A DNA stretch of 63,290 nt, counting the filler, from Clostridia bacterium (GTDB lineage: Bacteria > CBDUZB01 > JAGLHV01), in assembly GCA_030637025.1 (NCBI GenBank). It is 4 parts of 4 records of this genome, joined end to end, with 100 filler letters (N's around TTAATTAATTAA, not from the genome) between each part and the next. Parts side by side here need not be neighbours in the genome. Positions count along the whole stretch, not along the records: positions 1 to 27,063 come from DAOVVV010000034.1; 3 more parts are not named here. The stretch is one strand, 5' to 3'. The first letter of the stretch is position 1; each line of letters begins with the position of its first letter. Made by a program: the position numbers and the translations under genes. A model generated the notes under the pieces. The model did not search any database and was not told the origin of the DNA. It saw only the letters and a program-made list of their open reading frames with translations. Shown piece after piece: positions 3,543 through 54,960 of the stretch.

Positions 3543-6500
3543 ATGTCTTTGATTCAAGGTGCGGACGGAAAATATAGATCGTGGATTAAAATAGTGGCAG
3601 GGTTAACTTTGAGTTTTTTTATTGCTACTTTTTTACCAAATTATGCGTATGCTCAGGTGTCAATGTTGCCGCAGGCTATACCTTCGGATATGGCTTTGAA
3701 AGAGGTAATGATTAATCCTGAAAAATTAAAAGTTCCTACCAGTTTTGGTAAAATTGTAGATACTCATTGCGGGAAAGGCGATAAATTACTTATTTATATT
3801 CAGGATTTACATACTAATTATGAAGTGCAAACCAATATTTATAGTATTCTGGAAAATTTAACCGAAACTTACGATTTAAAGATAGTCGCCACAGAAGGAA
3901 CACAGGGAGAAATTGATACCTCCCTGCTTTCTACCTTTCCTTTGAAGAAAGTGAAAAAAGAAGTGGTGGAATTTTTTATGAGGAGGGGAGAAATAACCGG
4001 GCCGGAGTGTCTTTCTATAATGGGTCAAAAACCCCCTATTTTGTATGGTGTGGAAAAAAAGGAGTTATATCTTAAAAACTTAGGTTTGTATAAAAGTTCC
4101 CTGGATAGTAGAAAAAAATTGAGGGAATCATTAATTTCATTAGATAAAATAATTAAAGTTCTCCAGCAACAAATTTATTCTCCTGAAATTTTAAGATTAG
4201 TGGAAAAGGTTTCTTTGTATCAGAAAAACGAAATTTCTGTGGTTGATTTTGTTGGTTATTTGCAGGAAAGAGCTAAAGATACCAAGATAAATATAGAAAA
4301 AAGATTTAAAAATTTAGCGATATTAATAAAATTAATCCATTTAAGACAAAAATTAAATTCCGGTAAGAGCTTACAAATAGAAACAATGGCCATAGTATCA
4401 AGACTTTATGCAGTGATGAACGTTACGGAAATAAGAGGGTTGACCCGCAGAAGCCAGGAAAGCAAGGATTTAGAAAGTTATTATTTGTATTTAGAGAACT
4501 TAGCTAAGAAATATAAAGTTGATTTAAAATATTATTTTCCTTATTTAGCCAGTTATTTTGAATATATGGAACTTTCTCGCGGATTGAATAGTGTGAAGTT
4601 AGTAGAGGAGCAAATAAAATTAGTAGATGAATTGATTAATTTCTGGTGCAGGAATAAAGAAGAGAGAGAAATTATTCATTTGAGTAAAGTAATTGAAACA
4701 ATGAAGAAATTCATTGATATAAAGATGACCGGATGGGATATTGAATATTATCTAAAAAATAAGAAATTTTTTGACCGGGATAGAATTATAAATTTCTTAA
4801 AGAAAGAAATAAGAAAATATAAAAAGGAACCTTCTTCTGATATGCCTCCCGATGCTCTTCCTATGATTCTTGGCCGCTATGATTTGAATGAATTAGATGA
4901 TATACCGGATTTTAAAGAAGTCCTTACTACCAGTGAAGAATATTATGCTACCGCAGTTGGTAGAAATAAGTTCCTCCTGGAAAATAGTTTAAAAAAGATG
5001 GAGGCAGAAGAAAATTCCGTAATTGCTCTGGTTACCGGAGGTTTTCATACCCCGGGAATAACCAAACTGGCTAAAGAAAAAGGCCTTTCTTATGTGGTTG
5101 TTTCTCCGAATGTTACTCAGGCAGTAGATAGTAAGAGATATTTTGCTCTTTTAGAAGGGAAGGAAACCCCGTATAAAGATTTATTACTGGAACAAAGTGA
5201 ACTTTTACTTGCTCTTGCTTCCAAATTTATCGGTAAGGAATTTACCAGAAAGATAGCTTTTCTGATTACTAATTCCTTGATTAAAATGTATAAAAATAAA
5301 GATTGGTCAATGGAGGATATAAAAACTGAAATTGAAAATGTTTTTAACCGGACAAATGTGGAAAATGTGGAAAATTCTAAATTTCAGTTTCAGTGGGTAG
5401 AGGAATTAACCCAAAAAGATACAACCAGGGAAGTATATTCATTTAAGGTATTTGAAAATGACACCATAAAAAATGAGGGGATAAAAAGTATTTTGGCAAG
5501 CCGTATAATTATAGAAGGGGAAAAGAGATGGGAGACTAACTTTATAGATTCAAAAGAAGCTGAGGGGAATTTATCTGAAATAAAAATGGAAAAGATAAGA
5601 ATACAGAATTCCCTTAGAGGCCAGTTAGGTTTGTGGATTAGTGGTTCAATTAATTTCTTGAAAAGGGGCATGCAGATGCAATATTTTATGCATCTGGCAG
5701 GAAGAGTACAGGAAAGGGTTAAACAACAAATTATCGCCCAGGGAACCCTGGTTAACCTGGTTAAAAATACCTCCGCTTTACTTTTTTCTGCCTCGGCAGA
5801 TGTTGTTCTGGTAAAAGAAGAAATGATTGCTGAAGTACCTGGAGTGGAAGAAAAAGTGGGTGAGGTAAAAGTAGTGGAAGCGGAAGTTCCTGATGTAGAA
5901 GTGGCTGAAGTGCCGGATGTAAAAGTAGTAGAAGTTCCTGAAGTGGCAGAGAAAGTAGATGAAGTGGTGGAAGTAGTACCGCTGATTATACCTGTTATGA
6001 CTACCAGAGAATTGGGTAATGTTTCTTCTTTATATCAGGTAAAAGACCTTTATCAACAGCCCCTGCAGGATTTTCATGTTCCACCTTCTACCATTTCTGA
6101 GCAGGAGATGAGAGTAGAGGCAGAACAGGGTAAAATACTTATTCAACAGGGGAAATTTAATATTCTTAAACGTATTTCTCAGGCAAGAGGAATGAGGCTG
6201 GAAGGATATATTGAAGAATACGCCGTGGGAAAAATAAAGGGACGGCAAAATATGGCTAAAATACTTTCCGGAGTAATAATTAATCTGTTTCAATCTCTGG
6301 AAAATAAACTTAGTTCATCTAAAAAGGAATACTGGGATATTTTAGAAAAAATCAGTCAGGGGGAAATGGATTTTAATTCGGAGGAATTTTGGAATTTTAT
6401 GGCGGGAAATGACAACAGTGCGGAAATTTGGAAACTTATGCGTAGCGAAATAGCTAAGGCTTATGGTGCGGAAATATGGGCTAAAGAAAAAAATATTTCG

Positions 6501-9500
6501 ATAGAACAAGCAGAGCAGGAGATTTTAAAAGAAGTATTAAGCCCGATGGTGGATGGATTAACTGAGGAAATTAAAGCTGATTTAAGGCAGACAGGAGGAG
6601 AATTTACCGATAGTATTTTATATAAAGCACAGCTTAATCTTGATTTTGCTTATATGATTGATAATGCTGCTTTTGCCAAGGGTTTATATGAGGTGCAGGA
6701 TTTAGCGGCTGCTTATATGGCTAAAGATGGCGGTAGCTTTGTGGAAGTGCGTACGGGTGGAGGTAAGACCCTGATTGGTATGTTACCGGCTTATTTGATA
6801 GCCCTTAAAGGGGAAACTTGTCTTTTTATAACTAGAGATGCTACTCTGGTAAATCAATTTATAAAAGATAACCAAAATATTGCAGCTATTTTAGGGGTTG
6901 ATATGGAAGGATTCCTGAGGGAAGGTTCTGAAAATGTCAAAAAAGCGGATACCCCGGAAATTCAGCGTGAAATATTGAATGTTACTCCGGAAAATCAGGC
7001 AATAAGGAGAGGAAAGATTGTAGTTACTACTAGCCCTGATGTAGCTTTTACCGTGGGTTCGGATATGAAACTGAGTGAAAATGAAAAGGTTTTTCCCAAA
7101 GAATTTATATTTAATTTAATTTTTGATGAAGTAGATATGTCCGCAGCAACCCAGGCTACTATGGCTTATGTAGAAGCTTTGATGGCTGAGCCCCTCAACA
7201 AAGGGGAATTAAAAAGAGGTGTTTTTGCCGATTGGCTGGCTGTAGAATTAATCGGAGAAGGCGTAGATGAAATTCATAAAGCAGTAATAAAAGCTTATGA
7301 AAAAGGAGAAGAGCGTGAATTTTTGACTAAAGGAGGATTGGTACGAATTAATCTAACTGCGGGCAGAAAGGGCAGTCTAACGATAGCTCCGGAGGCAGAA
7401 TCTGTAATTAAGCAGTGTTATGATACGGCCCAGGAACAGGGATTAAGTTTAGGTAAATATAAAAAGTTCAGACAGATGGTAGAAGATCAGCTTACTGCTC
7501 AACTTTTACGAAAGAGTGATGAACAGTATGCATTTGAGAAAGTGGACGGTCAAATAGAAAGCAAATGTATTGAACCGGCTACAGGTGCCCGGACTAATCA
7601 ACGGGAACAAAGGATTCAGACTGCTATAGAAATTAAAGAATATAGAGCGGGAAATTTTAAGGGACAGGTCCTGGGAGAATCTCAGACCAATAATAGCCTT
7701 ACCATTCATTCTCTTATTGCTTTGGCTGTTAAATCGGGTGGTTTGGTGACGGGAATGAGCGGAACTTTCGGTAAGACAGTAACGGATGAGTTAGCTAAAA
7801 TAACAGGGAAAAAACTTTCACAGATCGGAATAGAGGTTCCTAGTCATTATGAAAGTGTGGTTGTAGACGAGGGTTTTATTTCCGGGGATACGGATTCTTC
7901 TACTATGGAAAGTATTATTAATTGGATTACTATGATAAAGAATGACAGAAAAGGGGCACCGATGTTGATGGCTTTAAATTCGGACAATACTACCCAGTGG
8001 ATAATAGAACAGATTAAAGAAGCGGTTAGTCTGGAGAAGTTTGCTTACAAAAATATTAAAGTGATTGGAGCAGAAACTGTTGTGGAGAAAATGGAAGAAC
8101 TGGAGCAGAACCGTTCTTCAGACACCTTGTTTGTTTATACGGTTACTGCTGCGACTACTGATTCCCAGATAGAACATATTCGTAAATATGGCGGACAGCC
8201 GGATACTTTACTTATCGGAGGAAAGACTATCGGGCGGGGTTTTGATGCTGGTTTTAAGACCATTAATGTTGAAGAAATCGGTCAACAGATAAAAACGATG
8301 TTGTTCGAAGCAGGAATATTCGAAGCAGAAATAGCGGAGGAAAAAGCAGCGGGTATTATTTTATTAATGGAAGAAATGCTCAATGATTTAAGAGCTGAGC
8401 GAAATATGGATATACGAAAAGAAAAAATTGAAAATATTAAAACATATTTTGATACAGTGCGTAATTTGTTAAAAGAAGGGGGAGTTAGCCTGGAGGTATT
8501 AGCTGAGTTTGAAACAATGGAACGACGGATATTTGCCCGGGAAGTATATGGTTTTCAGGGAGTTAATCAGTGTGATGATCTAACTTCTGGAGAAAGACGT
8601 CAAAGACAAGGACGGGTTGGCCGTCAAAGTGAGGCCGGTTCGACATGCGAATTAGTTTGTTATCAAAAAGGAGAAAGTAAATTTGGTGATATGATAGATT
8701 TTGAACGGGGGATAGAAGCTCCGTTGGGTGGAGTAATGGAAATGGGTAACGTCTTTAAATCTTTGTTAGCCGGAAAAATTAGTTTAAAAGAAACGTTTAT
8801 TCAGTTTGCACAAACTTCGTTTGTAGATAAATTGAAAGGATTTATATTGGGTGAAAATTCCGCTGAAGCGGCTTTTCGCAGGATGAATAGTTTAATAAAA
8901 GAATACAAACAACTTATTCAAGATCAAGGGAAAATAATAGAAAAAATTAAAGTCTCAGTCGGAGAGCAGGAAAAATCAGAATTAGAGCAACAATTAAAGG
9001 ACGTAAATGGAAAGATGGCAGGGATTAATAAGAAAGCAATTGCCCTTAAAATATATGCAGTAGATAGATTAGAAAGAAGTGATTCCCACTACCGTTTAGC
9101 TACCAGAAAGCGTAGTCTTTTTGCTACCCGGGTTTATGAAAAAATAGAAAAGTCCCGTAAGAATATTCTTAAAGCGGAAGTTACTAAATTAAACATTATT
9201 CAGCGTATTATTCAGGGTTTAAGGATAAGACAATTTTTTAGCCAGGAAGCTTTAGTCAGATTATTTATTAAAGATGAAATTAAGGATTACCGCAAAATGG
9301 CTAAAGAGATAGAAGATCCGGTTAAACGCAGTGAAATTTATCAACAGATGATTAGCCGTTTGGAAAAAGGATTAAATATAAAAGAAGGTGAACTTGCTGC
9401 GGAGTTGACTGAGGAAGCGTTGTTGTTTAAAAAATTAAAGACGAAAAAACTGGTAAATATGATTACGGAAAAGCTTATTGAGCAGAGGGGAGAGGAAAAT

Positions 9501-12500
9501 ATTTTTTATGTCGATGAACAAACCAATACCGGTGTTCTGGATGATGCTTTTAATTCGGTTAAAGCCCAGTATATCAGCTATGCGGAAAGCCAGCAGCACA
9601 AGAATATGGCTGTTCCTCTGCTTGCGGAGTTAATTAAAGTACAAATTTATAAAATAATACTCACTTATCGTTATCAAAGGGATATGCGCAGGATTGTTTC
9701 CCGGATGAGCCAGACAATGAGAGAGGGATTGGATAAAACCATAGAGACGGAAAGTTTGGGTAAAAAAAATATGGAAGTAGATGTAAATGCAGTTATTAGG
9801 AATGTTTCCGCAGGGATGACCGATGCTTTGAAAATAAGTGAATTAATGGCCGGTAAAGAAGAACGCAGTTTAAAAACACGGGTAGGAAAGGGTTTAGATA
9901 ACGCGGCTAAATTGTTTGCTGATTTTATGTGGCGAGCCCGGGGAAGATTATTAGGTGAAATTAAAGAACGGGTAGTTACCGTAGCGGAAAAGCGTGAAAT
10001 GGCGGCAGGTATACCCATGGTAATGGGACAGGCAGGTAAATCCCATACCGGAATAAAGGTTGCTGATTATAGAAAGGTGAATACTGACCAGATAGAGCGA
10101 GAAAAAGAATGGATGGAAAATAATCAAGTAACCCTGGATTTACAAGCTGGCTTAAAAGCAGAGGGATTTTTTGTGACTATGCCGGAAGAAAAAGTAGCAG
10201 AGGTAGCAGAAGAAAAACCAGTGGAAGTAGAAAAACCCGCAGAGGTAGTTACAGAAGTTCCTGGTGAGGGTCCTGAGATTCCCGAGGAAATCGTTCCTTT
10301 TGATACTAAAATAATTGCTCATTTTCAGGGGGAGACTGACCAAATAAATAAAGATTTGAATAATATTCAAACAGCTATTGAGGGGTTAGATATAGAGTTA
10401 GAAACAGAGGAAGTTAATAAAGTTTATCAGCAATTAAGTGAAATTCGGACAAAGATTTCCAGCTTAAGGCGCGAATATAAAACTATGGAAGTACCGGAAG
10501 ATTTAAGCAAAGATATTCAGTCATCATTAGAAAAAATAGGGACGGTTATCAGTACTCTGGATAATCAGGCAATTAAATTAAATAATGAATTGGATGATAA
10601 AACCGGAGCCCACATAGTTCCTTCCCGTTTTGATGTAAAGAATATTATTAGAAAAATTGACGGGAGGGTTTTAACTTTTACTCAAAATCTTGCTTCAAGC
10701 AAATTAGGCAAACCGGTTTTTGGACTTTCTTTAGGGGTGGTATTTGCCGGGTTTCTTTTTATTCTTTTTAATGGTTTATCTTTTGGTATGTTGCCTATTT
10801 TAGCTTTAGTTTTTACTCCGCTAACTATTTTATTTTCTTTCTTTAAAAAGGAGTCGGGAACTACTTTTCCTGCCCAGCCTAAAAAAGGAGCATTGGGTAA
10901 ATTAATGAATATTAGTGAAAAAGTTAAAGAGGTTATTGGCGGTACTCCCGGAAAGCCGGCTTCATGGACTAACCTTTTTATTTCAGGAATAACTTTAATT
11001 GCTTTCGGAATTAGTTTAGGTTTTGGCCCGGCTGTTCTTTTAACTGCAGGAACAGCTGTTTCTGCCGGAGTAAGTATGATGGGTTTTGGGTTCAGTCCTA
11101 TAATCTTCATTTTTATAACCAATGCTATATTACAGAAAACCAAATTTCTGGATAAGCTTGCCGATAAAATAAGCGGCCTGTTAGGTATTCGTAAAGCAAA
11201 AATAGAAAACAAAAAAGGCTTTGAAAATCTGAGATTACGGATGGAAGAAAATATTCGCCAAAACAAGGAAAATGTTCCTTTACCAATAGAACAGTTAGAA
11301 AAACAGGCAAGGATTATTGCTTTTGGGGGGGAGGAAATAGCGGAGGAAAAATTAACCCCGGCAATGAAGGAACAGTACCGGAATGTTCTCAAAGGTTTGG
11401 AAACATATTGGCGCAGTGTGGAAAGAGAGCTTTTGAAAGAAGCAATTAGTCAAAGTGAAAAAGATATTTCTCATGCGGCTGAGGTAAATAAAGCGGTAAA
11501 CGATGAGGCAATTGCCGCTTTTTGTGGTTTGAGAGTGAATTTCCAAAGAATTAAAGAAAAAAAGACATTACGACCCGATAATGAAAAATTAGAAGAGTTC
11601 GCTGTACAAATAGCTGCAGCTGAATTGGAAAAAGATGTTTCAGTAGGGGTGGTAAATGCCCGAGTTGAGGAGGTTCTGCCATATTTAAAAGAATATTGGT
11701 TTGAGGCTGAAGAGGAGGTCTTAACCGGGAAAATTGCTCAGGCTAAAGCAGATTTGGGTAATATAGTAAAAATAGCCGGAGAAGAGCAATTGGAATTAAT
11801 TGCTTCCAACGCTGTTCAACGTGCCCGGGCAGGGGAAAATGCACAAGCTTTAGAGTTATTGCAACAACGATTTGAAGAAAACAGAAAAATTTCTCAGCTT
11901 ACTCCCCAAAAATTAGCAAAAAGGCAAAAAACAATATGGGCAAACGTTGCCCTTAAATTGGGGTATCAACCGGGAGAAGAACTTTATCTCCAAATAAATA
12001 AGGCTTTACAACAATACTGGGTAAGTATAGAAGGGGAATTATTGCAATCAGCCATTAAACAAAGCCAGGAAGATATTACCCGTGCTTCTGCATTAAACAA
12101 AGCAGTAAATGATGTGGCTATTGCTGCTGTTTGCGGATTAGAAACCAGTCTGGAAAGAAGCCGGCAGAAAGAAACCTTACCTTCTGCGGAACAATTACAA
12201 AAACTAGCCGTAGATATAGTTAATGTTGAACTTAAGGAAGATGTTTCAGCTCAGGAAAGAAATGCCCGAATAGTAGAAGTGGTTCAATATTTAAAAATGT
12301 ACTGGTTTGATGCTCAACAAAAGCTTTTATCCAAAAGAATTGCTCTGGCAAGGGGGGATCTGGATAATATTGTAGACATAGCTAAAGCCCCTCAGGAAGA
12401 GTTAATTGCTCAATATGCCAGTCAGCTGGCACAGGCAAAAGAAGGGGTTGCCTTAAAAGAAAAAATAAAAAGATTAGCTACTTATATTGAACAGGAATTA

Positions 12501-15500
12501 GCTGAGTGGTCCATTCAAACAGAACTAGAGTTTATTTCAAAATCACAGGAAGATTTAATTGCTTTAGTAAACAAAGCAGAATATTTAACCGATAAAACAA
12601 AAGAAAATCATATTAACCAAATTAATCAAAAAGTTGCTCAGTTAGAGCAAGCAAGAACAGTACAACCGGAGGAAACGGTAGAGGAAGTAGTAACACCAGC
12701 GGAAGTAGATGTGAAAAAGAAAGTAACTATTGCACAGATTATAGGGGATGTTTTTGATGGGGCTTTGCGTCCATTCAATGCTTTGCATTGGGAAATAGAA
12801 GAGGGGGTAGTAGATGCGATTATTGCCGGACTGGGGTTAAAGCAAAAGGAGGTTAGCTTAACGGCAAAGCAAAGAGAAAAGGTAGTTAATGCCCTGGAAT
12901 TATTAAAAAGAGAATTTCCGGAATTGGAAAATAAAGAATTATCCGGTGCTATACAAAAAGAATTGGATGGGTTAATTAATAATCCGGAAGAGTTGAAAGT
13001 AGTCGAAGGTAAGTGGTTTATTATGGATGAGTCTAATACGCTTAAAGCCTGGGTAGGGGCATTTTTAAATGGACCGTATGTATTTATTTTAAAGGCCATG
13101 ATTAAAGGAGCGACAGAAAAACAATTAGCCGGGGCTATCTTACATGAGTTGTTGGAAGTGCAGGGAATAGAGCATGAGCCGGCAAAAAAAATTGTAGATA
13201 GGTTTATAGTCGGTGAGGAAGCTATTGAAGAACGGATGGAAAAGATTGCAATACTGGAGGCGGCAGGTTTTAAAACAACTAATCAAGAGATATTAAAATT
13301 AAGTATAAAGGAAATAAAGGAAAGAATTGCTCTTTTAAATGAATTAAAAGAATCAGGAGTAAAAGTATCGATTGGTTGGTTAACATATGCGCCGGTTACA
13401 TTGAAAGAGTGGGTAGAAGCGTTGGTGGAAATGGGTATTACTTATGCTCAGATTACTTCGAAGTTAATTATTATTCAGAGTTATATCCAGCGGCTGGCTG
13501 AAGGAGAAGATGTTGGGGAAGAACTAAATAATAAAATTGTCCGGTTAAGTGAACAGCCGGAAAATGAACAGATAGTAAATAAGTTGAAGGGAAGAGTTCA
13601 GCAGCTAATTCCTGAAGCAGTGGAAAAAGTCGAAGATGATATTGAAGAGATAAAAAATAAGATAAAAAGTTTGCCGGACGAAGAAAAACATTATATCCCA
13701 ATAACAATATCAGACACGAAAGATGTTAAATTTCTTTTAACCCGGGAAGATTATGCGGCGGGGATGAAAGTAAGTGAAGGGGGCATGCTTAGTTTATTAA
13801 GTAAAGCATTAAGCCTGGAGAAAGAATTATATTTTGGTATATATTATGAGCCATTAAATGAAGAAATTGTATTATCACTTCTTGACCAACCCCACTATTT
13901 CTCCGAGGAGCATGGGAAGAATGGTTTTATCGGAATAAACAAATCCATAGTTGAAATCAAAGATGAAAAAATACGCAATATAGTTTTGATAGTAGCTTTA
14001 ATGCACGAGTTAAGGTATGAAGTAACCGGGCGGGATGACGATGCTTTTGAGCAGGAACAATTAGCCTGGGACATTCAATTGACCCTTTCTTTATTAAATG
14101 AAGAAGGAATTTTATTAGATGATTATATTAAGACACTGGGATTATTAGATAAAGAAACTCCGTATTTAAGAGGACTGCAACAATTTCCTTATAAATATTT
14201 TGTAGAAGTATTATCAAGGACATTTGAAAGAGATGAAACTATTATCGGACAAATATTTGATAATTTTTCCGGGGATATTAATTTTGAAAAATTAACGGAA
14301 AATATTTTTAAAATGATTAAGGAATTAGAAACATTAACCGATATTGAAAAAACTGATCTTGATAAATATGAAAAATTCTCCCGGCTTTCTCTGGAAATGT
14401 TGGTAGCCATTGTACCGGCTTTGAAAGAAAACTGTCAACAACTGGATAGAGTAATAAAAGGAAAAGTAAAACCGGCAAAGGTAGATATTATTGAATTAGT
14501 TGATTCAGTAATAGAGGCAAATAAAATAAGTAATGTTAATGTATTATTACCTGAGGGGGATAATTTACCCCAAATAGAGGGATTTAGTGATTACATAGAA
14601 CAAACATTAGTTGAATTAATAACTAATGCTAATGAACATGGGGCAAGAAATATCGAGGTAACTATTTTAAAAGCCATACATCCCCAGACTAGAGAAGAAG
14701 GGATCCAAATTAAAATAAAAGATGATGGGAGGGGGATTAATTCTGAAGATCAAAAAAATATATTTAACAAGGGATTCAGGGGTGATGTAGAAGTTGGGGA
14801 AGGAAAGAAAATTACGGGTACAGGGTTAGGTTTGCATTATGCTAAAAGATTTATAGAAGAGTTATACCGGGGGGATATTAGGGTCAGTAGTGAAGGCAGG
14901 GATATTAATAAATGGGAAGCAGGGAAGGGAAATGGAAGTACCTTTAATTTGACTTTATTTGATATCGACAAGGAACGGGATTATCAAGAATATCGCTATG
15001 AGCTTGTTGTTTCTATAATTCATAATATAGGTAACAATCTCACCGTTTTAAAAGAATCTGCTGCAATGTTATATGAAAGTAAAGAAGATGATAAATTGTT
15101 TTTAGGGATAAAAAACAAGGTGGAAGACATTATTACCTACATAAAAATATTTATGGTAATGAGAGATCAAACTACTTTAAAAACGAGGCTTGAAGAAACA
15201 TGGAAAGAAGAACCGGTAACGGAAAAAAGATTTCCATTTATAGCTTTAACCTCTTTCTTAGTAAGTATATTTAGTGTGTTTGGACTTGTTGGTATAGCTA
15301 TGGCAGAATCGGGAGTTGTAACAAATGTTGTTTCCGGAATATCTTTATTAGGGATAAGTGTACCGGGGATAGTAATTGGAGGTATAGGTATAGCTCTGGG
15401 TGTATTAGGGTTGAGATGGATACTAAAAAGGATAAAGGAAAGAGCGGATAAAGAAAGAATAAAAATAGAAGCACCCCCGGTCATTGAAAAGCTCAGTAAC

Positions 15501-18500
15501 GAAGAAGCAGGAGCAATAGTTAATAATGCGGCTATTCTAAGTAATAAGGAAAGAGCTTATAATGAGGATATAGATGTTTTGCCTGTAAAAGTTAGGCCAA
15601 AAGAAATGAGAGAATTATTAAAGAGTGAAGTATTTCGGCCAAAATATCAATATAAAATTGGCAAATATACGATTTATTTATCCAATTCTTATAAGAGTGA
15701 TAAAATTACCGACCGGGAGTCAGTTGTAGCATATATTAAAAGTCCGGACGGTAAAATTGTAATAAGGTCTTTTTACTGCTCTTTATCTTTAGGATTGTGG
15801 CATAGTGCCAGTCATTTTGGGCAGCCCGGAAGCCCTTTATGGATTGGAAAAGGTATGACAGCTTTTAAATTTTCTACTCAGTTACCAATACAGATGCAAA
15901 AGGTGCTTTTTGATATTCGTTCTCAAGTTGGGTTTGCTCAAGAAGTCAGCGGAGAGGAAGCAAAGAAAGTTTTTTACGGTGCGTTACAATATTTAATTCC
16001 TACAGAATACGAAAAAGAATTGGAAGGAATTTCTGAAGGAATTAGAGACATGATCAGAGATGTGCCTGAAAGTAGAAAAGTATTGGATTCTCAAAAAGGA
16101 ATGCACATAAAACCGGAAGATTTAAAGATTAAAAGTAAAAAACTTAGACCGGATTTCAGTAAATTAATAACCAGATTTGAAGTCAGGTTAAATCCGGAAC
16201 TTTATAAAGAGGGAATAGGTGAAGCCTATGTTTTTTATTCTAACGATAAAAAATTACAGTATCTGTTTTTAAGGGATACTTCCGGGAATGTGTGGTTGGG
16301 AACGATTGATTTTATAGAGGAGGATATTAACAATTTTGGGATAAGAAGGGTTATGTATAATCCTCTTGATTTAAGTAAACCGCCGTACGAATATTATGAC
16401 AATATTCCGGAGGGATATATAGGAGAACGGAAATCTGGAAGTTATTATGAGGTTATAAATTATCATCGTAACGTTTCGATTTTAAATGAAGCGAAGAAAG
16501 TGATAGAAGAGAGAAGTAAAGAAAGAACATGGGATGAATGGAAGAATATTTTCCGGGGAGAGGGTGTTGAAATTATACAAATGGAACCTGTTAGTGTTGA
16601 TGGTTCTGAAGTTTTAACAGAGGGAGATGCCCGGAGAAGACTGGCAACATATACTTTGGAAATAGATGCAGATAAAATCACCGCAATCGAAAAAATATTT
16701 GAAGAAATCGCAGTAATTGAAAAATACATTTCAGAAATTAAACAAAAGAACGTGAAGGAAATAGCAGCAGATTATAAGTCGTGGAATATAGATAAATTAG
16801 AAAATAAATTAAATGAAATTTTAAAAACGGGTAAACTGGATGATAAAGATTTAGACAAAAAAGTATTAGAAGAAGTTAAAGTAAATATAGATAAAATTAA
16901 ACAAATTAAAAATAGCATTAACCATGAATTAAATGTTAATCGGATTAAAACAATTGAGCAAGAAATAGAAAAAATCAGTAAACAAATTAGTGAAGAAATC
17001 AGTAAAGAATCGGAGTTTGTTTATTTAATGGATGTTAATGCTTTTAATAAATTCAACGAAACACTGGAAACAATCGATAGTAAAAGGCTGGAACTTATAA
17101 ATGTTAAAAAGCCCTTATTAGAAGAAAGTAGCATTCAGCAATTAAGGGAGTTTAGAAATCGCGTTAGGGATGAAAAAAGGTTGATAAAACAAAGCCTTGA
17201 CCTTTCTGTTGATGAACGGCAAATATTTATTGGCTGGTACTTATTTAATGAATATTATGAATTATATAAGGAAGACGATAAGCATGAGCAATTAATGCAA
17301 AATGTTAAGTTTGTTGAAAGATTAATTGCCTTAAATAAAGAAAATGATATTCCGGCAAAAGAAAAAGAATTATTTGCTTTGATTAGTGAGTTAAGAGCCA
17401 GAGGTATAAATGAGGAAATTTATAAGCAGGTGCAGAAAGTTAGAGCAAGGCATATAGAGCAAAAACAATCAGTTCAGGATTCTTTAAATATCATGATCAA
17501 TCAAATGAATGTAATAAGCGGTCAGCCGGAAGAATTATTACGGGATTTAAAAAGTAAGGAATCTACGGTAAAAGTTTTAGAGGAAAAAGCATTAGTTGAA
17601 TTTAAAAGTGATTCGGAAAAATTTGCTTTGTTTAGTAAAAAGAAAACTATTTCGAAAGTTGGAAAAGATGATTACTTTCAGCAACACCTGGCCACACATG
17701 CTAAACATTTTTTCGGAGAGGCAGAGCCGCTTAATGCAAGGCAATATAGAGAACTTATTGAGCAAATAAAACAAAAAGCGGATATGTGGTTTATCTCTTT
17801 TGATGAAAATGGAGTAAAAAGATATAACTATTATGAACAGGGACATAATGTTTTATTAATAATAACAGAATACAGAGACTCAAATCCATTATTTATAAGT
17901 TGTTATCCGGTTACTTCCGATAGAGTGGGAGAGCTTTTAAAGAGAGAAAAAACCTATGTTGTATCTGATTTGAGGGAAGAAAAAGAACCGGTAAAGGGGA
18001 AAAGATTTTCTACTACAGTCTTAATTTTTTTATTAGTAAGCATAGTCAGTTTTTTTGGACTTGGTGGTATAGCCATTGCAGAATCGGAAGGTTTAACAGG
18101 TGTTGTTTCCGGAATATCTTTATTAGGGGCAAGTTTACCCTGGATAGGAATTGGATTATTAGGTATAGGGATGGATGTATTGGGGTTGATATGGATGCGA
18201 GAAAGGATAAAGGCTCTACCTACATTTTTGACTCCAAAAATAATTGCTGGGTTCGGAGGAGGTATTGGGAGGATTGAGAAAAAATTAATAAGGGTTTCTA
18301 TTGCTATGAATACAAGGTCAGAAGATGAAGAGAGTGAAAATAAAATAATTAGTGGAATGTATAAAAATTTGAAGAAAATTCAGACTCAAATTTCCGCACT
18401 TAACCGTAAATATCAGGCTGTAGAAATTCCCGCGGGTGTGAGTGAAGAACTTAAGGAGGCATTTAAAGATATTGGAGTTAGATTAACTAATGTCAATAAT

Positions 18501-21500
18501 CAGGCAATTGACTTAAATAGGCAGCTTGATGAAAGAAGAGGACCTATAGAAGTTAAGCCCCCGGTCGAAAAAGAAGTGAAAGTCAAGCCGGAAGTTGTTA
18601 CTACCGAGATAAAAGATTTGGTGAAAAAATTTTATGTAACAGGTTTACTTTTGGGAATATATATTCTTGGTTCCTTCATATTACTTCCCGGATTTAATAG
18701 CGCAGTTCCGGAGCAAATGAATTTGTTTTCTTTTTTCTTTAAAATATCTTTAGAAATGTTAACCGAGCAAGGGGATGTTGTCGGATTAATATCTCTTTTT
18801 TCCGGTGGAAGTATGGCTTCTATTTTTGCTATGGGTCTGTTGCCGTATTTTCTTGCTTCCACGGCAATTCAATTAGGAAGCTTTGTTTTTCCGGGAATAA
18901 AGAGAAGGATAAGCCAGGGAGATGCGGGAAAAGAACGACTGGAAAAATATACCCGATATTTAGCTTTAGGGATAGCAGTTTTTCAGGCGATAATAATGGT
19001 GAATTACTTAATGCCTTTTATGGTAGGTGCGGCATTAATACTTAAATTATCTACGGCTGTATCTTTAATTGTCGGGACTGCTTTTATTATGGGGATAAGC
19101 GAGCAAATAGGAAAAAGAGGCCTGGTTAAAAGAGGCAGTTTACTGGTAATAAGTGTAGGGATGTTAACCAGTATGGTATTTACTTTATTTAGCGGTCCTA
19201 TAGCAATGGCTGCGATATTTTTCGTAGCAATTGCCGTTCCTTTAGCTATAGTTATTCATAAGGTGCATTATAAAATTCCGGTCAGATTTGCTCCGCTTGC
19301 CCGTAAGGAAGCGAAAGAGAAGATGGGGTTTTTGCCTTTAAAGCTGGATACTGCCGGGGTAAGTGCGATTATTATTACTATGTCTTTTCTGATGGTAGGA
19401 TCGATGATTTCTACTGTTTTTATGGGGGCAGGGGCTATTACTATTGGGCCGAATTTAATGACCGCTATTACAGGGATAATGATATTTTTCTTTTCTTATG
19501 TAGGTACGACCAGGGTACAGATGAATGTAAAAGATCTGGTCAAGGATTTTTTACGGGGAGGAAAAATCATTCCCGGTGTTGCCCCTGGTGTGCAAACAGG
19601 GGAATACATAAAAAAGACAATAAATAGAGTGGGGTTTTTAGGTGCTTTATTGGTTACTGCCATTACTATTGCCCCAGCGGCGTTAGGGATTGGGACTTAT
19701 GCTTTAGGAATGACTATTTTAATTTCCACTCTGGTTTTCTTAGAAATTTTCAATCAGATAAGGGTTGCCTGGTCCAGTTTAAAAGTAGCTACACCCGAAG
19801 TGGTTGAAGCAGAAGAAACAGCGGAGAGGAAAAGCATCAAGTATTTAGTTGTGGCAGCAAGTGGATTATTGGGGCTGGTTAGTTTATTTTATTTAGCTTT
19901 ACCCTCTTTAGTAGACATACTTACCATGGAAATTACTTCCACACTTTTTCTGGTAGTAGGAACGGCTGTTTTGATGGGCGTGTTGTTTTTTAATTTAACT
20001 TCTTTCGGCCAACAGATTTTAAAAAACAGAGCCAGGAAAATATCTATACTCAGAGAGAAAGCAGACATAATAGATGTATTAAGGGAGAAGTATGCCGGAA
20101 AGAGCAATGAGCAATTATTGGCAGAAGCTGAGCGGTTAAGAGGGTTATTTACTCCTGAAATGACCGATGAAGAGGCGGTCAAAATACTGGAATCAATGGA
20201 CGAAGACGGTATACCGATTAAGCTGAAGGGTATTGCCTTAGCTATGACTAATATTGAACGAACTTCCCGGGAAAGTGCAGTGGAATCAGCTATTGAATGG
20301 TTAGAAAAAGATACAGAGTCGATGACGGATAAAGCAATAAAATTAGCCATTAAGCAGGCGAAGGGAAATAATGGGGAAGCATCCCAAAAAGTAGTAGATT
20401 TAGTTTTGTTTAAAATAAATAAAAAATTAGAGCAAAAGATAAGTGTACATGAAAGATTGAAATTAGAAGAAGAAATAGGAAAGATTGAGAGGAAATGGAA
20501 TTTCACTTTTAATCCCAATCAGGTATTTACTGCCCTGGCTTTGTTAGAGCGGGAAATTAAAGAAAAAACATTACTTGGTGATTGGTCAGGGAGGATACAG
20601 GGGTGGATTACTCCCAGCGACTTAATGCAGAAAATAGTAGGCAATTATGTTCAGCTACCCGGGGGAGAAGGGAAAACCCAGGTAGCTGCGAGTGCTTTAT
20701 TTACAGCATCTTTAGCCGGCCGGGGCAGTCAGTTATTAACATCGCATAAAAATCTGGCTAAGTCGCAAGGGAAAGAGATGGCTATGTGTTTAGCGCGTTT
20801 AGGGACCAGTGTGAGTGTTGTAGGAGCCGAGTATGATGAGCAGGGAAGGCAGGTGCATTATGTATATAAACTGAAAGAATTGGGTAAAGATAAGGTTAAG
20901 GTTGAATTGGTTAAAACTACTGATGTGGAAGTAGCTTATAATGAATGTGATATTACTTATAGTGATGAAGCTACGGCTAATCATCTAAGGCAGATGCACT
21001 TTTTAAATTTGCGTCCTTCTTTTTACGCTGCTTACGATGAAGGAGATGCGATTTTTAAAACTACTTCTCCCAGGAAAATATCCGCAGGAGCAGAAGGGGA
21101 AACATGGAGTAATGAGAATATAATTGCTTTAAGAAAACTCTTTTTAGAAGATGGATTAAGGGAAGGTGATTTTAAATTGGATTTCCGGGGGGATGGAAGG
21201 ATCAGGCTTACCGGAAATGGACAGGCTCAATTAAAGAGAATAATTAAAAATGAACAGCAAGCGGAAAAAATTATTAACTATTTCAGAGAAAATGGTTTAC
21301 CGGAAAAATTTGTTTTTGGGATGCTGGTAAAAAGGTTAAAACAAGCTCAGGAACGGAGAGAAGGGGAATATTTTAAGGTAAATTATGAGGAAAAAGAAGA
21401 AGTAGTAGAATTAACCTCTGCCGGCAGGGAGATAATCGAACGGAATTATTTAGGGCTTCCTTTAGATTTATCACTTACCCAGTTGGATATAATTCATTCC

Positions 21501-24500
21501 CATTGTTTACACGCGGCAATGCAGGCGGAATTTTTCTTCAGGCGTCACAGTAAAGAAGCAGTGGAAGAAGCAAAAAAGCAGGCTGAAGAAATAGGTGCCC
21601 CTCAGGTTCAGCAGTTAAAGTGGTATGACCTGGCATGGGTAAAGGATGCACAGGGGAATGATATTGTAGCCTTAGGCCCGATTAATCCGCTTAGCGGAGC
21701 ATGGGAAAGAACGCAAGTAGCAGGAGGCATTCATCAGGCGATGGAAATTGCCGTAGTATTAGATAGAGTAGAAAGGGAAGAAGTGGTTGCTAAATTTAAA
21801 TTAACCGATGAGGGAGATACCTTCAGTCAATGGACTATTCAGCAATATACTCAACAGCATTTCTGGATGGGGGCTTTATCTGCTACCGGGACAGAAGATA
21901 GAGGGTTTGAGAAAGAATTAAAGAGAGATTATGGCCTGGCTATGGTAGATATTCCCCAGGATAAAGCAGTGAGTTTAAATAGGGATAAATATGAAAATGG
22001 TTATTTTATGAAAATAAAAGACCAGATTAGTTATATTAGTGGGCTTATTGGGGAACATTGTAATATAGGCGGGATATTTGTAGTTGCTTATACCGAGGAA
22101 AAAATGATGCAGATTTTTGCGGAAGTTAAACATTCCCTGGAGAAAAAGGCTGAATGTGCCACTATTGAACCTCCGGATGTATCTCTTAGTCCGGATGAGT
22201 TTGATAAAGAGCTTATAGCTAAAATTTCCCGGGCACAGAAAGTAGAACCAGGTAAACTTACTTTATGTAAGTTAGCCAGTGGAACTACTGATGAACAGAT
22301 AGATGCTATTGCCGAGATAGGTAAATTACCCGGGGTAATAATATTTACAACTGCACGCGGTTCCAGGGGATTTAGTGTAATGGGTAAGAAAATGTTGATG
22401 ATTGAAGCGGAACTGGCACAAAGTCCGGCTGATACTATTCAGTCTTTTCGCCGGGTAGCCAGGCAGGGAGAAGAAGGTTTTGGGGTACAGGTGTTTAGTT
22501 TTGAGGATTCCGGATTATTTACCAAATATGCAAAAGGATTTGTAAAGAAGTATTTAACAAAAGGAAAAGAAGGGAACTTATTTGGAACGACCCTGGGGAC
22601 GTTATTAGAGAATATGATTAGAAAAGAAATACAGCTTACTATTGGGCTTAAACAATTATCGGAAAGAATGTTTTTTACCAAATATTATAAGACTACCCAT
22701 AAAAACAATTTAAAAGTTTATCAGTGGCAGGAAAAGATTGGGGATGCCTCTGACAGACAGATAAACAGATATGTAGAGAGATTAATTGAAATGCAGATAA
22801 GTAGTTTAAGTGGTAAGTATGCATCTTCCAAGGGAATAAAAGAAGTATTAAATGAAATAATAGCAAGGAGCGTAGAGGAATACACCTTGACCCAAAACCC
22901 CGAATTTTGGAAATTGGAGAAATTAGAAAGAGGTTTAATTAATTTATTTCCTCAGGAAAAAGATGAATTAAATGAAGTTTTCGCAGAGATAAAAATGGTG
23001 GTGGAAAGTCGTAAAGGTCCTCTGGATAATCGCGCTTTGTTTGCTTTAAGAAAAAAGGTAATTAAAAAATTGGAAGGATTTGTTGCTCAATTGGATGATG
23101 AGGTTTTAATAGAAAGAGGGCGGTATTTATTAACGAGGCAATTAATTGGTTTGGGGTTACCTCCAAAAGAAGTAGAAAAAATAGTTTCTTCGGAAGATTA
23201 TCGGGAAATGGTTGAAGGAACCGGTGACAGGTTAAGTAATAATTTATTGTTTTTAGTTAAGGACGGATATAAGGCAGGGATTGAGGTAGGGGATTTTTCT
23301 GTAGAACAAATAAAGCAGATGTTGGTTAATGTAATTAGTAAAGAGAGAATAAATTATTTAACTACAGTTGATGTGGCAATGCAAAAAGTACAATTGCTTG
23401 CTTATGCAGGAGAAGAACCTTTAGGGGAATTTAATTTTGAAGTCAACAAAAATTTTCAGGAATATACTCAGAAGGTAGTAAGAAGGGTTTTTAAAACGGT
23501 TTTTATCAACAGGATGAGAAAAGAGGAGAAACCTATTTCTTTTGCTCAGGGGATTAAAAGAATAGAAAAATTACCCACATTAAAAAGAGTTATTTTTATA
23601 GAAGGGGCTGCTCAAATCCGGGATTGTTATCAATATCGTCTCCACGGTGTGGCCGGGGAAAAATTTTTATATGAATCCCTGGAGGATTTAGGGATTAAGG
23701 AATTAAAGGAAATTTTTGCCGTACCGGAAAAAATAAAAGAAGAAATCGTAGCTGAGGGGATAGAACAAACAATTTATTCAATGCCGGAAAGAGTTATTTC
23801 CCAGGAAGTAAATTTAGATGTTGATAGAAACAAAGATATAAGGGATGCTTTAGCCAGGAGAATAACTCCTTTATCCGGGCAGTTCACAGCAGAGAATATC
23901 GGTGCGGTGGAAATAGCCGGTTTTGGAAAAACTACCAGTCCGTTGACAATAGTAAGAGTGAATAACCCTGAAAAAATTGATTCTACTGTATTGCAATGGG
24001 TGGAAGAAAGATTAGCTTTGATAAATTCAAACAGCAAATTGGTATTTGTTTATGCCGGAAGTAAAGAATCATTGAGAATGAAGAAAGGGGTTACGGCAAA
24101 AGTTTATTCTCTGGTAAAGAAAGAAAATAGAAAGCTGAAGGTGAAAGAATCAGTACCCATGTATTTTTATGATGTATTTAATGAGAAAATATCCGATGAA
24201 ATGCCGCGATTGGGAATTGTTTCCGTAATACTGTGGTCAGTCGGCCGGTGGATTTCAGGGATTTCTATTCGTTCTCCGGGAATGGCTTTAAGACGTATCT
24301 TTAGTGAATTGGGACTGGAAAATTTACGGGAAGCAGGAATTATCCGCACAGTCTATAGTTTCTTTTCTCTTTTTGCTTTAGCCGGCGGGCTTATGGTTGG
24401 ATTGGCTCAGAGTGTAGCGGCAAGTGATGAGGTAGCAGTTCCGGTAACGGAAGAAGAAGTAATAGAAGAAGTTCCCGGAATAGAAATAGCAGAAATAGAG

Positions 24501-27063
24501 GAAGAAGAAATAATTACACCTGAACCTACGGAAGAGCCCACAGAAATACCTGCGGAAGAGCCGACAGAAATACCTACAGAAGAGCCGACGGAAATACCCA
24601 CAGAAGAGCCGACAGAAATACCTACAGAAGAGCCGACGGAAATACCGACGGAAGAACCGACAGAAATACCTATGGAAGAACCTACGCCAGAGGTAACGCC
24701 CACACCCGAACCCACAGAAATACCCACAGAAGAGCCTATAGTAGGAGAATTACCGGAAGAAGAAGAGATGATGTTTTTGCTTACCACCGAACAGCTGGAA
24801 GGTTTGGGGTTTGATTTATCAGCGGTGAGGTCTTTTGAAAAAATAGATGACAATGTTAAACTTATCTATTTCGATGATAGTGAAGCAGTATATAATTTAG
24901 ATTATAAATTAATATCTTTAATAGATGAAGAAGGAAATGTTTGTGAAGTCATTCCTACCGAAGATAATGAAGTTGTTAATATTAAAATACCTGCTAAAAA
25001 TTGGGTTTTAACCTATGATACCAAGGGAGCAAAAATAACTGCTGTTTATGATGAATCTATAAACCAATTTATTGATTTAACAGTTGTTTCGGAATCTACT
25101 CTTAGCGGACTTACTTCCGGCATAAAAATTCTTGATGCTGTAGGAGATATAAAAGCAAATGATCCGTACGAAGGAGATTTGTTGAATAAAGCCCGAGACT
25201 ATTTTAATGCAGGGGAGTATGATAATGCTATAAGTTCTTGTGAAGAATTTATAGAGGTTTTTGAAGAAGATGCTATGCTGAAGCGTGATCAACTGGAAAT
25301 TTTAGGTGGAATGGATGACGCAGTAAATGGTGTTGAATGGGGGAAGATATTTGAAGAGTATGGAACATTAATAAATATGATAGAGATATATGACATTATG
25401 ATTAAGAGTTGTGAACTAAACCATGAAGATAGTAAAGCCGAAGACTATGGTAATGAATTGAAAAAAAATTATCCGGATTATATAGATTTACGGACAGATC
25501 AGGTATTGCTTATTGGGGCAAGGGTAAATTTTAATGAGGAAAATAACGAAATATCAATTCTATATGCAAACAAGTTGTATAATATTTTTGGGCAGATAAA
25601 AGGAATACAGTCTGCAGTCTCAGCTATAGCCGAAGTATCCATTTATATGGTGGTTTTAAATCCTGATGGCGTCCCGGGAGATGATGGTAAGACCTGGGAA
25701 GAAATTTATGAAGAATATCATCTTTTTACCAGGGATCAGGTATTAACCAGTGCAGTAAGAGAGAATTGGAAAACCAATCCTGTGTATGCAAAGGAATGTG
25801 CTGAAGAGTTGTACGAAATTTTTTATAATTTAGATATAGGAAAACCTTTTGATGTCATAGAGGCAGTAAAGGGACATAGATGGGGTGGTGTATTAGCCGG
25901 ACATGCTTCGGCGATGAATATAGCAGAAGTAAGTATCTATCTGAATATGGATGAAATGAAAGAAGTTTTGAGCGAGGGTGAGAAGGAAAAATGGAAAAAT
26001 ATATATAAAAACTATTCAGATTGTCCAATGGAGCAGGTATTAGCTTTCGGGGTGAGGGAAAATCACAAGGATAATCCTGACTATGCAAAGGAATATGCTA
26101 CTAATTTATATAGATGGCATTCAACAATAGATGCAGGGAAACCGGTATGGAGTAGTTATGAAGAGGTAGAGGAAGCGGTTAGAGGGAGAGAATGGATAAA
26201 AATTTTAGCTGAACATTCAGCGGCGTTAAATATAGCCGAAGTAAGTATTTATATGAAAAAAATAGATCCTAATGGTGTGCCTGTAGAAGGAGGAAAAACA
26301 TGGGAAGGGATATATGAAGAATATAAGTGGCATGATATGGGACAGGTGTTAGCTATCGGAATAAGAGAGAATTATTATAGTGGAAATTATGAATATATGC
26401 AGGGATATGCAGAAGGGTTATACAGTATTTATCATGATTCCGATATAGGTAAAAGCTTTGATGTAGGAAATGCAGTGAAAGGTAAAGAGTGGAAAGATGT
26501 GTTAGCTGAACGTGCTATAGCGATGAGTATAGCAGAAGCAAGCATTTATATGAATAAAGAGGAAGTGAAAGAAGTATTAGATGGAGAGGATATAGAACTA
26601 TGGGAAAACATATATATAGAATATAGCAGTTGTACTACGGATCAAGTATTGGTAGCCGGGGTAAGGGAAAATTATAAAGAAAATTCGGGATTAGCCGATG
26701 GATATAGGGCGGAATTTAAGAAAATGTTTGTAGATGCAGCCGAGGGGGAAGAAAAAGGGATAGTAGAACAACAGTGGGAAGCGTTACAGGAGGAATTAGA
26801 CAAGGATAAACCGTTTGAGGGTATGGGTGTAGGTACGGCGATGGGTAATTATGGAATAGTATTAAGCTGGAATGAGATAGGAGCGATATACGGAGATACG
26901 GAGGTAACCAATAAATATACTTACGGTACGGCCCAGCTGTTGGTGGCCGGGGTAAAGGCTAATTATGCGGATAACAAAGGTTTAGCACTCGGATATAAAG
27001 ATATGTTTAAAGTGTTGTTTGTAGATAGCGGTATAGTGGATGAGCAATTGGAAAGACTTAAAA
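3543..27063 (+). CDS. Giant multidomain membrane protein (at least 7,840 aa, 3'-truncated) with two SecA-like ATPase domains and a SecY-like channel
   Basis: Uninterrupted frame from ATG 3543 (SD gggagg) to the N gap. The apparent stop at 27119 is in the artificial spacer. Signal peptide ends PNYAYA. Domain evidence is in the entries below. Confidence 0.95.
3740..5170 (+). other. Giant-protein N-terminal domain, TraB/TIKI (EreA/ChaN-like) fold candidate with helical insertion
   Basis: Motifs IQDLH, ATEG, GRNKFL and ALVTGGFHTPGI occur in the order typical of this superfamily. Confidence 0.5.
6660..9720 (+). other. SecA-like ATPase domain 1 within giant ORF
   Basis: LYEVQ...EVRTGGGKTLIGMLPAYLIALKG (Walker A), IFDEVD (7125-7136), EPATGA...IQTAIEIKE, GMSGT, GRGFD and QRQGRVGRQ (8601-8627), all in SecA order. 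Confidence 0.88.
11406..12390 (+). repeat. Tandem duplication of about 203 aa (609-nt period) within giant ORF
   Basis: YWRSVERELLKEAISQSEKDI..NKAVNDEAIAAFCGL..YLKEYWF vs YWVSIEGELLQSAIKQSQEDI..NKAVNDVAIAAVCGL..YLKMYWF (starts 11406 and 12015). Confidence 0.9.
14470..14960 (+). other. Histidine-kinase-type ATPase (HATPase_c) domain within giant ORF
   Basis: N box ELITNANEHG, G1 IKDDGRGI, F box IFNKGF, G2 GTGLGL, G3 GSTFNLTL. Confidence 0.9.
15207..15437 (+). repeat. Internal signal-peptide-like/TM hairpin repeat, copy 1
   Basis: KRFPFIALTSFLVSIFSVFGLVGIAMA-ES...VVSGISLLG...GVLGLRWILKRIK. Shares an exact 27-nt stretch gttgtttccggaatatctttattaggg with copy 2. Confidence 0.85.
17982..18212 (+). 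repeat. Internal signal-peptide-like/TM hairpin repeat, copy 2
   Basis: KRFSTTVLIFLLVSIVSFFGLGGIAIA-ES...VVSGISLLG...DVLGLIWMRERIK. Confidence 0.85.
18624..19763 (+). other. SecY-like translocon channel domain within giant ORF
   Basis: Ten hydrophobic segments and SecY signatures in order: GSFILLPG, LFSGG, SIFAMGLLPY, GKERLEKYTRYL, GTAFIMGISEQIGKRG, LPLKLDTAGV, IIPGVAPGVQTGEYI, GMTILI. Confidence 0.92.
20010..23520 (+). other. SecA-like ATPase domain 2 within giant ORF
   Basis: SecA N-terminal helix (KYAGKSNEQLLAEAERLR), QLPGGEGKT (20661-20678), YDEGD (21036-21047), NPLSG...GGIHQAMEI, SATGT, GSRGFSV, QSFRRVARQGEEG, SFED and the C-terminal LLAYAGEEPLGEF (cf. LRGYAQKDPKQEY). Confidence 0.88.
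24516..24737 (+). repeat. 24-nt tandem repeat encoding EEPTEIPT linker
   Basis: About 8 imperfect copies of gaagagcc(g/c)ac(a/g)gaaatacc(t/c)ac(a/g), a Pro/Thr/Glu spacer. Confidence 0.95.
25497..27063 (+). repeat. About 100-aa helical repeats at the visible C-terminal end of giant ORF
   Basis: Anchor (D/E)QVL..GVREN at 25497, 25734, 26031, 26340, 26640 and 26931; most units also contain NIAEVSIYM-like and AVKG.EW motifs. Confidence 0.85.
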
Positions 27064-27163
27064 NNNNNNNNNNNNNNNNNNNNNNNNNNNNNNNNNNNNN
27101 NNNNNNNTTAATTAATTAANNNNNNNNNNNNNNNNNNNNNNNNNNNNNNNNNNNNNNNNNNNN
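27064..27163. other. Artificial contig spacer
   Basis: N-run, TTAATTAATTAA (stops in all six frames), N-run; 100 nt. Confidence 0.97.
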
Positions 27164-54860: not shown

Positions 54861-54960
54861 NNNNNNNNNNNNNNNNNNNNNNNNNNNNNNNNNNNNNNNN
54901 NNNNTTAATTAATTAANNNNNNNNNNNNNNNNNNNNNNNNNNNNNNNNNNNNNNNNNNNN
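54861..54960. other. Artificial contig spacer
   Basis: N-run, TTAATTAATTAA, N-run. Confidence 0.97.

Follow-up and report, generated by a model that had tools for sequence, protein, structure and literature searches.

A SecY channel domain, a two-helix hairpin and a SecA-type motor in one giant polypeptide: a candidate single-chain translocase

A SecY channel domain was identified inside a giant open reading frame (ORF) in a stretch of 63,290 nucleotides (nt) of DNA from the uncultured sediment bacterium recorded as Clostridia bacterium (assembly GCA_030637025.1), hereafter the window. The ORF (3543..27062) encodes at least 7,840 amino acids (aa) and is read, with all the parts described below, on the plus strand. 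Its SecY domain (18621..19772, aa 5027-5410) is followed by a hairpin of two transmembrane (TM) helices (19833..20009, aa 5431-5489), located by a hydropathy scan, and by a SecA-type motor (20499..23513, aa 5653-6657). The SecY domain is real, complete and folded, and on balance it is probably the first module of a dedicated, single-chain translocase built into a giant membrane protein. We infer from the results given below that this cassette translocates protein and that its substrate is its own chain, and likewise the reason for which it has lost a conserved docking arginine.

The Pfam SecY model (PF00344) matches aa 5093-5402 with 154.1 bits against a gathering threshold of 32.2 (E = 7e-45) and is covered from position 1 to 305 of 306. 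A phmmer search against PDB sequences gave 16 matches, every one of which is a SecY. The AlphaFold2 (AF2) model of aa 5020-5495, built from 69 sequences, has a predicted local distance difference test score (pLDDT) of 84.5 and a predicted template modelling score (pTM) of 0.83. It contains ten TM helices in the expected order, a plug helix and, in the 6/7 loop (cytoplasmic loop C4), a beta-hairpin. The top Foldseek match of this model is 5aww_Y from a SecYEG structure (E = 1e-18, template modelling score 0.73 normalised to the target), and the best 50 of 68 matches with E ≤ 1e-3 are all SecY/Sec61 chains. The domain is not a free-standing subunit of about 400-480 aa. It also misses the NCBIfam equivalog cut-offs for the housekeeping SecY (TIGR00967, 141.9 bits vs 253.6) and for the accessory SecY2 (TIGR02920, 87.1 vs 249.6; NF009082, 80.3 vs 353).

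The motor was recognized by Pfam, by collinearity with the SecA of T. maritima and by a family profile. The Pfam model SecA_DEAD (PF07517) matches aa 5630-6118 with 42.9 bits against 24.6 (E = 4.8e-11), and SecA_SW matches aa 6429-6654 with 25.6 bits, just under its cut-off of 26.7. Residues 5620-6720 align with T. maritima SecA in five collinear pieces, and a profile of six cassette motors matches SecA in the PDB with an E value of 4.7e-36 over SecA residues 92-803 in four collinear pieces. The NCBIfam SecA equivalog cut-offs are missed by the motor (53 vs 814 bits). The sequences LPGGEGKT (20655-20678), YDEGD (21033-21047), GGIHQA (21723-21752) and RRVARQG (22446-22478), the first two and the last of which we take to be the Walker A, Walker B and VI motifs of SecA motors, are conserved in the relatives described below as GxGKT, DEGD/H, GGxHQA and RVxRQ, respectively. 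A motif resembling the two-helix finger, VQLLAYAGEEPLGEF (23388-23432), has the T. maritima counterpart VQLRSYGQKDPIVEF, and its aromatic tip is kept in all 5 sequences that reach this point. As judged from these alignments, the motor is complete, with two nucleotide-binding domains (NBD1 and NBD2), the preprotein cross-linking domain (PPXD) and the scaffold in the order NBD1-PPXD-NBD2-scaffold and with a two-helix finger.

Relatives of the cassette were sought by HMMER in 1.84 billion representative proteins, which gave 3,628 matches. All but one of the best 150 were ordinary SecYs of some 230-580 aa; the exception was P0002, a fragment of 2,037 aa. P0002 and the window protein are collinear in BLASTP over 1,585 aa (26% identity, E = 2e-117), including a SecY, a hairpin and a SecA-like motor, and P0002 reads IPGIAPG at the cytoplasmic loop C5. 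A metagenome-assembled genome of Candidatus Firestonebacteria has a near-copy of P0002 on a contig of 6 kb, the sole locus obtained from a scan of genome contigs. The window cassette was also searched against 99 genomes of the Firestonebacteria-related phylum of genome G001, and a SecY with a SecA-like motor in one open frame was found in six of them. These frames encode 13,678 aa in G030, 11,265 aa in G023 and 9,337 aa in G028, and those in G001, G026 and G031 are truncated where their contigs end. The embedded SecY of G020, in a protein of 9,665 aa, is more divergent, and the cassette-motor profile found no motor in that protein. The cassette starts at aa 1,024, 2,929 and 5,020 in G028, G030 and the window, respectively, and the order of SecY, two-TM hairpin and SecA-type motor with finger motif is conserved. 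When 500-aa pieces of the giant protein were compared with the relatives by tblastn, the alignments were confined to roughly the first 260 aa and to the cassette. The window's organism is not close to the 99 searched genomes, because its aspartyl-tRNA synthetase is at most 62% identical to that of any of them.

Other searches widened the set little. No homologue of region 5020-5495 was found among proteins of 4,321-13,752 aa, and region 590-1100 of P0002 matched only P0002 itself among proteins of 1,120-3,565 aa. A search of proteins of 894-2,550 aa with a cassette alignment gave no match and missed even P0002, hence its sensitivity was poor. In metagenome contigs, a family alignment gave no relative, and the window protein as query gave 35 loci, none of which matched past query residue 391, the end of SecY, so that no cassette was found there. 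Six N-terminally extended SecYs (530-579 aa) were examined as possible fragments of giant proteins and were rejected, as they look ordinary and have R or K at the arginine column discussed below. Public metagenome runs whose labels name cold seep and marine sediment contain the stretch itself. A contig of 5,350 nt from run X10, which belongs to another study, covers 18558-21600 with about 91% identity (281 differences, 5 gaps) and spans the SecY domain, the hairpin and the start of the motor. In this contig, the 390 nt just 5' of SecY (window 18167-18558) are replaced by 888 other letters; the linker adjoining the conserved channel is variable.

The first-pass annotation had reported IPGVAPG in the C5 loop and GLVKRG in place of the usual GIGNG. 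In housekeeping SecYs, the C5 loop reads (I/V)PG(I/L/V)RPG, and the other motif, which precedes TM5, reads G(I/L/V)GNG. Both motifs are exactly where it placed them, at 19569..19589 (aa 5343-5349) and 19119..19136 (aa 5193-5198), respectively. In an alignment with E. coli SecY (5abb_A, 443 aa), Ala 5347 lies under R357 of PGIRPG and GLVKRG lies under GIGNGI (E. coli 182-187). The conservation of these motifs was examined in an alignment of 8 embedded and 61 free-standing SecYs, the latter comprising 6 from the cassette genomes and 55 near-full-length sequences chosen from 149 ordinary HMMER hits. The R357 column of the free-standing SecYs contains R in 56 sequences, K in two, and A, H and F in one each. 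The seven cassette SecYs have A, A, A, A, T, P and P at this column, and three of them have a Lys one position before it. The possibility of a one-off mutation is thereby contradicted, the Arg being lost in 7 of 7 cassette SecYs as against R or K in 58 of 61 free-standing ones. G020, the sole embedded SecY without a detectable fused motor, retains the Arg (RIGLRPG). The canonical GxGNG columns are nearly invariant in the free-standing SecYs (G 61/61, G 60/61, N 57/61 and G 61/61) and are changed to GL(G/V/S) with basic residues in the cassette family. The tip of the C4 loop, ARKEAKEK in the window (19299..19322), is not conserved across the embedded family. A third SecY-like gene was observed in G001 (G001:C115, L004:1363-2655). 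It is free-standing and highly divergent, encodes 430 aa, scores 68.7 bits with PF00344 over model positions 1-230, and reads NNLPGIIFDES with no PGxRPG seen.

Features of the pore are largely retained. The plug (TM2a) motif of the window, LFSGGSMASIF (18795..18827), aligns with the canonical FSGGAL, and FSGG is retained in 6 of 7 cassette SecYs, the SGG core being absent from G026. E. coli I82, I86, I187, I191, I278 and I408 are presumably the residues of the pore ring. At the columns of I82, I86, I278 and I408, to which the count is confined because the alignment is not confident at I187 and I191, 31 of the 32 residues of the embedded SecYs are hydrophobic or aromatic (L/W, F/Y/I, I/F/M/V and I/L/V, respectively). 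These results bear on the possibility that the SecY fold has been put to another use, holding the ATPase at the membrane as an anchor or scaffold or conducting something that is not a polypeptide, and no longer translocates protein. The loss of conserved cytoplasmic motifs (C5 Arg, GIGNG and C4 tip), the fast evolution of the domain and the missing SGG core of G026 would suit such a role, which is nevertheless improbable in view of the hydrophobic pore-ring columns, the plug motif in 6 of 7 cassette SecYs, the polypeptide-pushing finger motif of the motor and the PPXD recognized in the motor of relative G028 (Pfam SecA_PP_bind, E = 3.1e-5).

The domain had also been described as minimised, with very short extracytoplasmic loops. 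Compared with the free-standing SecYs of the relatives, the loops TM3-4, TM5-6, TM7-8 and TM9-10 are shorter by about 9, 10, 15 and 4-6 residues, respectively, so that four of the five periplasmic loops are shortened, whereas the loop between TM1 and the plug is about 12 residues longer. The anchor distance from TM1 to TM10 is 360 residues in the window and 344-353 in the six cassette relatives, against a median of 380 (range 367-409) in the 61 free-standing SecYs. The shortening of the loops thus holds, and the reduction as a whole is modest, the domain being only 5-10% shorter. The changes of the C5 Arg and of GIGNG are family-wide, and the trimmed periplasmic loops are those of the window's SecY.

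The hairpin that follows SecY is present in 7 of the 8 embedded SecYs, and its pLDDT in the AF2 model is 62-74. An earlier suggestion that it replaces the SecE clamp found no support: an hhalign comparison of seven hairpins with five SecE proteins of the relatives gave a probability of 0.4%. Prediction of a complex of the SecY domain (residues 1-396) and the hairpin (400-476) gave an ipSAE of 0.00 in two runs without controls and counts neither way. The absence of visible secE and secG genes, noted earlier for the contig piece, extends to the whole window in six frames, where profiles of five SecE and five SecG proteins from the relatives gave no match (best E values 0.65 and 0.17, respectively), at a sensitivity that is limited because the profiles come from a distant lineage.

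An ordinary SecY is also encoded in each of the seven genomes with an embedded SecY (the G026 copy is a fragment), and SecE, SecG and a SecA of 880-905 aa were found in 5 of 5 tested relatives. In these relatives, the cassette is therefore accessory to a canonical Sec system. In the proposed mechanism, SecY with its 10 TM helices, the two-TM hairpin and the complete SecA-type ATPase would act as modules of one chain. The cassette would most likely carry the later, extracytoplasmic stretches of its own giant chain across the inner membrane; alternatively, its cargo might be sister giant proteins. Such dedicated export would keep the housekeeping SecYEG from being occupied. A tethered motor would free the channel from recruiting the ribosome, FtsY or free SecA, and its cytoplasmic face would be reshaped: the constraints on the C5 Arg and GIGNG are proposed to be lifted by the tethering of channel and motor. 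The layout of the chain agrees with export of what lies downstream, since the motor is followed by one TM helix (24348..24416), a PT-rich linker and repeats.

A more specific version of this mechanism is a self-exporting chain. The channel, a hairpin substituting for SecE and the motor would be synthesized first and enter the membrane, and would then draw the megadalton stretch downstream of them across it, independently of ribosome docking and of SecYEG, and the loss of the Arg would be the signature of this independence. This version is put forward tentatively and is itself rather doubtful. A different arrangement is an accessory translocon acting in trans, which would export other proteins such as sister giants or neighbours, as SecA2/SecY2 does for large adhesins. 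It would account for the housekeeping Sec genes that coexist with the cassette in 5 of 5 tested relatives, for the additional genes that lie close to the cassette gene in G030:C1 and G020:C8 and share its N-terminal domain, and for the varying position of the cassette in the chain with large parts upstream of it. We regard it as unlikely, since at most one cassette was found per genome among the 99 genomes, always in a giant frame and never as a free gene, and since the NCBIfam SecY2 model gives only 87 bits against a cut-off of 249.6.

Several points weigh against a dedicated single-chain translocase. The AF2 model of the motor is poor (pLDDT 62, pTM 0.36), and the identity of the motor is for this reason argued from profile alignment; in a Foldseek search with this model, all of the ranks listed within 1-33 are SecA chains, with template modelling scores of just 0.3-0.45. 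In the tree, a branch with a Shimodaira-Hasegawa approximate likelihood ratio test (SH-aLRT) support of 99-100 has the embedded SecYs together on one side, which counts in favour of the cassette family. Their own branches are long, with 0.4-2.2 changes per site, compared with 0.001-0.08 for the housekeeping SecYs that these genomes encode; this contrast is only qualitative, given the branch lengths and the unproven orthology of the embedded copies to one another. These branches could reflect relaxed constraint, and with such lengths the clade appears less certain and the embedded copies are at most putative orthologues. The association of a kept Arg with an absent motor appears in a single sequence, G020, and is suggestive at most. 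As to the topology of the giant protein, its signal-peptide-like leader contrasts with its cytoplasmic-type ATPases and many TM segments.

Further points of this kind concern the cytoplasmic face of the channel. R255/R256 and R357 have been described as universal binding sites for the ribosome, FtsY and SecA (PMC3575545). The window's SecY keeps R-K under the C4-loop pair R255/R256, so its cytoplasmic face is not stripped of basic residues. Substitution R357E has been reported to keep the plug closed and likely to uncouple the SecA ATPase from plug opening, with SecA binding undisrupted (PMC6021171). It follows that gating of a channel that lacks the Arg might be altered or even absent. The first-pass annotation had supposed, as one possibility beside a repurposed pore or decoy, that the channel no longer recruits free SecA or ribosomes because its motor is covalently attached. 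The family-wide loss of the Arg, the motor in the same chain, complete by alignment, and the retained Arg of the motor-less G020 are in its favour; the R-K kept at R255/R256 is not, and since R357E leaves SecA binding intact (PMC6021171), 'no longer recruits' is too simple.

The open frame might finally be put down to decay of a relic, to a one-off mutation or to chimeric assembly, as the branches are long and the protein libraries contain nothing close to the window's lineage. Forty of 423 differences, pooled over four runs, were examined, which is a small sample. In the SecY domain, they comprise 8 synonymous and 3 non-synonymous variants (Y5031F, I5039V and R5132Q), whereas 12 synonymous and 17 non-synonymous variants lie outside it. 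The frame runs for 7,840 stop-free codons in DNA of about 36% G+C, the same architecture occurs in seven independent assemblies and in the contig from another study, the Arg is lost in common by 7 of 7 cassette SecYs, and the sampled SecY variants are mostly synonymous. An explanation of this type is thus very improbable. Neutral decay in particular, which had been named as an outcome to be checked, is unlikely because the fold, the plug and the four pore-ring columns are kept in most lineages and the cassette can still be aligned.

The window is composed of four draft-assembly contigs joined by runs of N with the spacer TTAATTAATTAA at 27064-27163, 54861-54960 and 59909-60008. The 3' end of the giant ORF is cut at the contig end before the first of these runs. 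As the contigs are joined artificially, genes beyond 27163 are not neighbours of the giant gene, and the remaining window contains ordinary bacterial housekeeping genes. The Pfam domains in the giant ORF are a SecA_DEAD, a HATPase_c, SecY, a second SecA_DEAD, the SecA wing/scaffold and PT repeats. The protein starts with a signal-peptide-like leader (...AYA/Q) and a domain of about 260 aa (3543..4320), for which similar N-termini were found by tblastn in the giant proteins of G028, G030 and G020 (23-35% identity). The leader (3543-3671) and the next 250 aa or so also occur in further tandem genes of G030:C1 and G020:C8 (L040, L041 and L049).

Far 5' of the cassette, aa 1038-1202 (Pfam 1038-1198, window about 6654-7150) form a SecA_DEAD/DEAD-like ATPase, which is followed by a block of four TM helices (aa 2388-2530). 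This ATPase is a different SecA-like type, since the cassette-motor profile does not recognize it (0.4 bits). The helical segment directly 5' of SecY (18324..18620) is a duplicate of aa 2283-2438, and the repeat is detectable in the DNA as well. In BLASTP, 10389-10856 and 18324-18752 share 30% identity over 156 aa (E = 5e-13); the duplication pairs the helical segments that precede the four-TM block and SecY, and the match extends into TM1 of SecY. The four-TM block might thus be a remnant or a partial copy of the channel module. A direct repeat of 234 nt with 80% identity (15205-15438 vs 17980-18213) encodes two near-identical two-TM hairpins (aa about 3888-3965 and 4813-4890). A histidine-kinase-type ATPase (HATPase_c, 1.5e-16) lies within the giant protein at aa 3683-3805 or thereabouts (window about 14589-14957). 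At 24500-24741 and 25607-26552, tandem PTEEPTEI repeats with a 12/24-nt period come directly after the TM helix that follows the motor, and after them units of about 100 aa recur at intervals of roughly 300 nt as far as the end of the contig. In G028, a complete chain of 9,318 aa (G028:C19:2956-30966; L045, L046) contains a TolC-like OEP in four stretches (1.2e-24), a GH5 cellulase-like part, SecY and SecA, and so unites parts for inner-membrane export, for outer-membrane export and for hydrolysis.

SecY and SecA are separate subunits in textbook accounts, and their transient docking is central to models of bacterial export. The channel described here shares its fold with the housekeeping SecYEG-SecA systems (PDB 3DIN, 5EUL, 6ITC and 5AWW; Foldseek template modelling scores of 0.73-0.77 normalised to the target), as well as the plug, the hydrophobic pore ring and the domain order of the motor including the two-helix-finger region. 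It differs from them in combining channel and motor in one polypeptide of at least 7,840 aa, with no SecE or SecG partner detectable in the window; the C5 Arg and GIGNG are missing from it, four of its periplasmic loops are reduced in length, and its scores stay far below the NCBIfam cut-offs. In Gram-positive bacteria, SecA2 and SecY2 are a second, divergent motor and channel, encoded by separate genes, which work with Asp helpers on very large surface proteins. The cassette is likewise a second, divergent pair of channel and motor (the models TIGR02920 and TIGR03714 were tested), but its parts are fused and embedded in the presumed cargo.

Giant proteins of Omnitrophota have been described as having multiple TM segments and embedded, divergent SecA_DEAD domains, and a role in self-export has been proposed for them (West-Roberts et al. 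2023, bioRxiv 10.1101/2023.11.21.568195). As presented in that preprint, their SecA-like parts are without scaffold and wing, and SecYEG is encoded only by separate genes. The window protein resembles them in its great length, its many TM segments and its divergent SecA_DEAD; unlike in these proteins as described there, SecY lies directly 5' of the motor, whose alignment with SecA extends over the scaffold and finger region. In the 'Hodor' megaplasmids, a SecY-SecG-SecE operon is reported beside genes for secreted proteins of more than 7,300 aa (bioRxiv 10.64898/2026.02.21.707213). There too an extra Sec channel is genetically linked to giant exported proteins, but the report describes separate and complete SecY, SecG and SecE with no fused motor. 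The main text of the 2026 Omnitrophota preprint contains neither PF00344 nor SecY, and literature searches, whose scope did not include the supplements of the two giant-protein preprints, gave no description of a SecY embedded in a giant protein. New here are the family-wide loss of the Arg, the contrast with the motor-less protein, the completeness of the motor, as judged by alignment, and the negative result on likeness to SecE.

The natural fusion can be regarded as a genetic experiment of evolution, which separates what a channel needs only for the recruitment of partners, namely the C5 Arg, GIGNG and long loops in the periplasm, from what the pore itself needs, namely the plug and the hydrophobic ring. 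The single-chain cassette may also provide a compact, single-gene translocase for reconstitution work. For the organisms that carry it, it offers a testable answer to how proteins of 8,000-14,000 residues, many parts of which are extracytoplasmic, would cross the membrane, a question left open in the papers on giant proteins.

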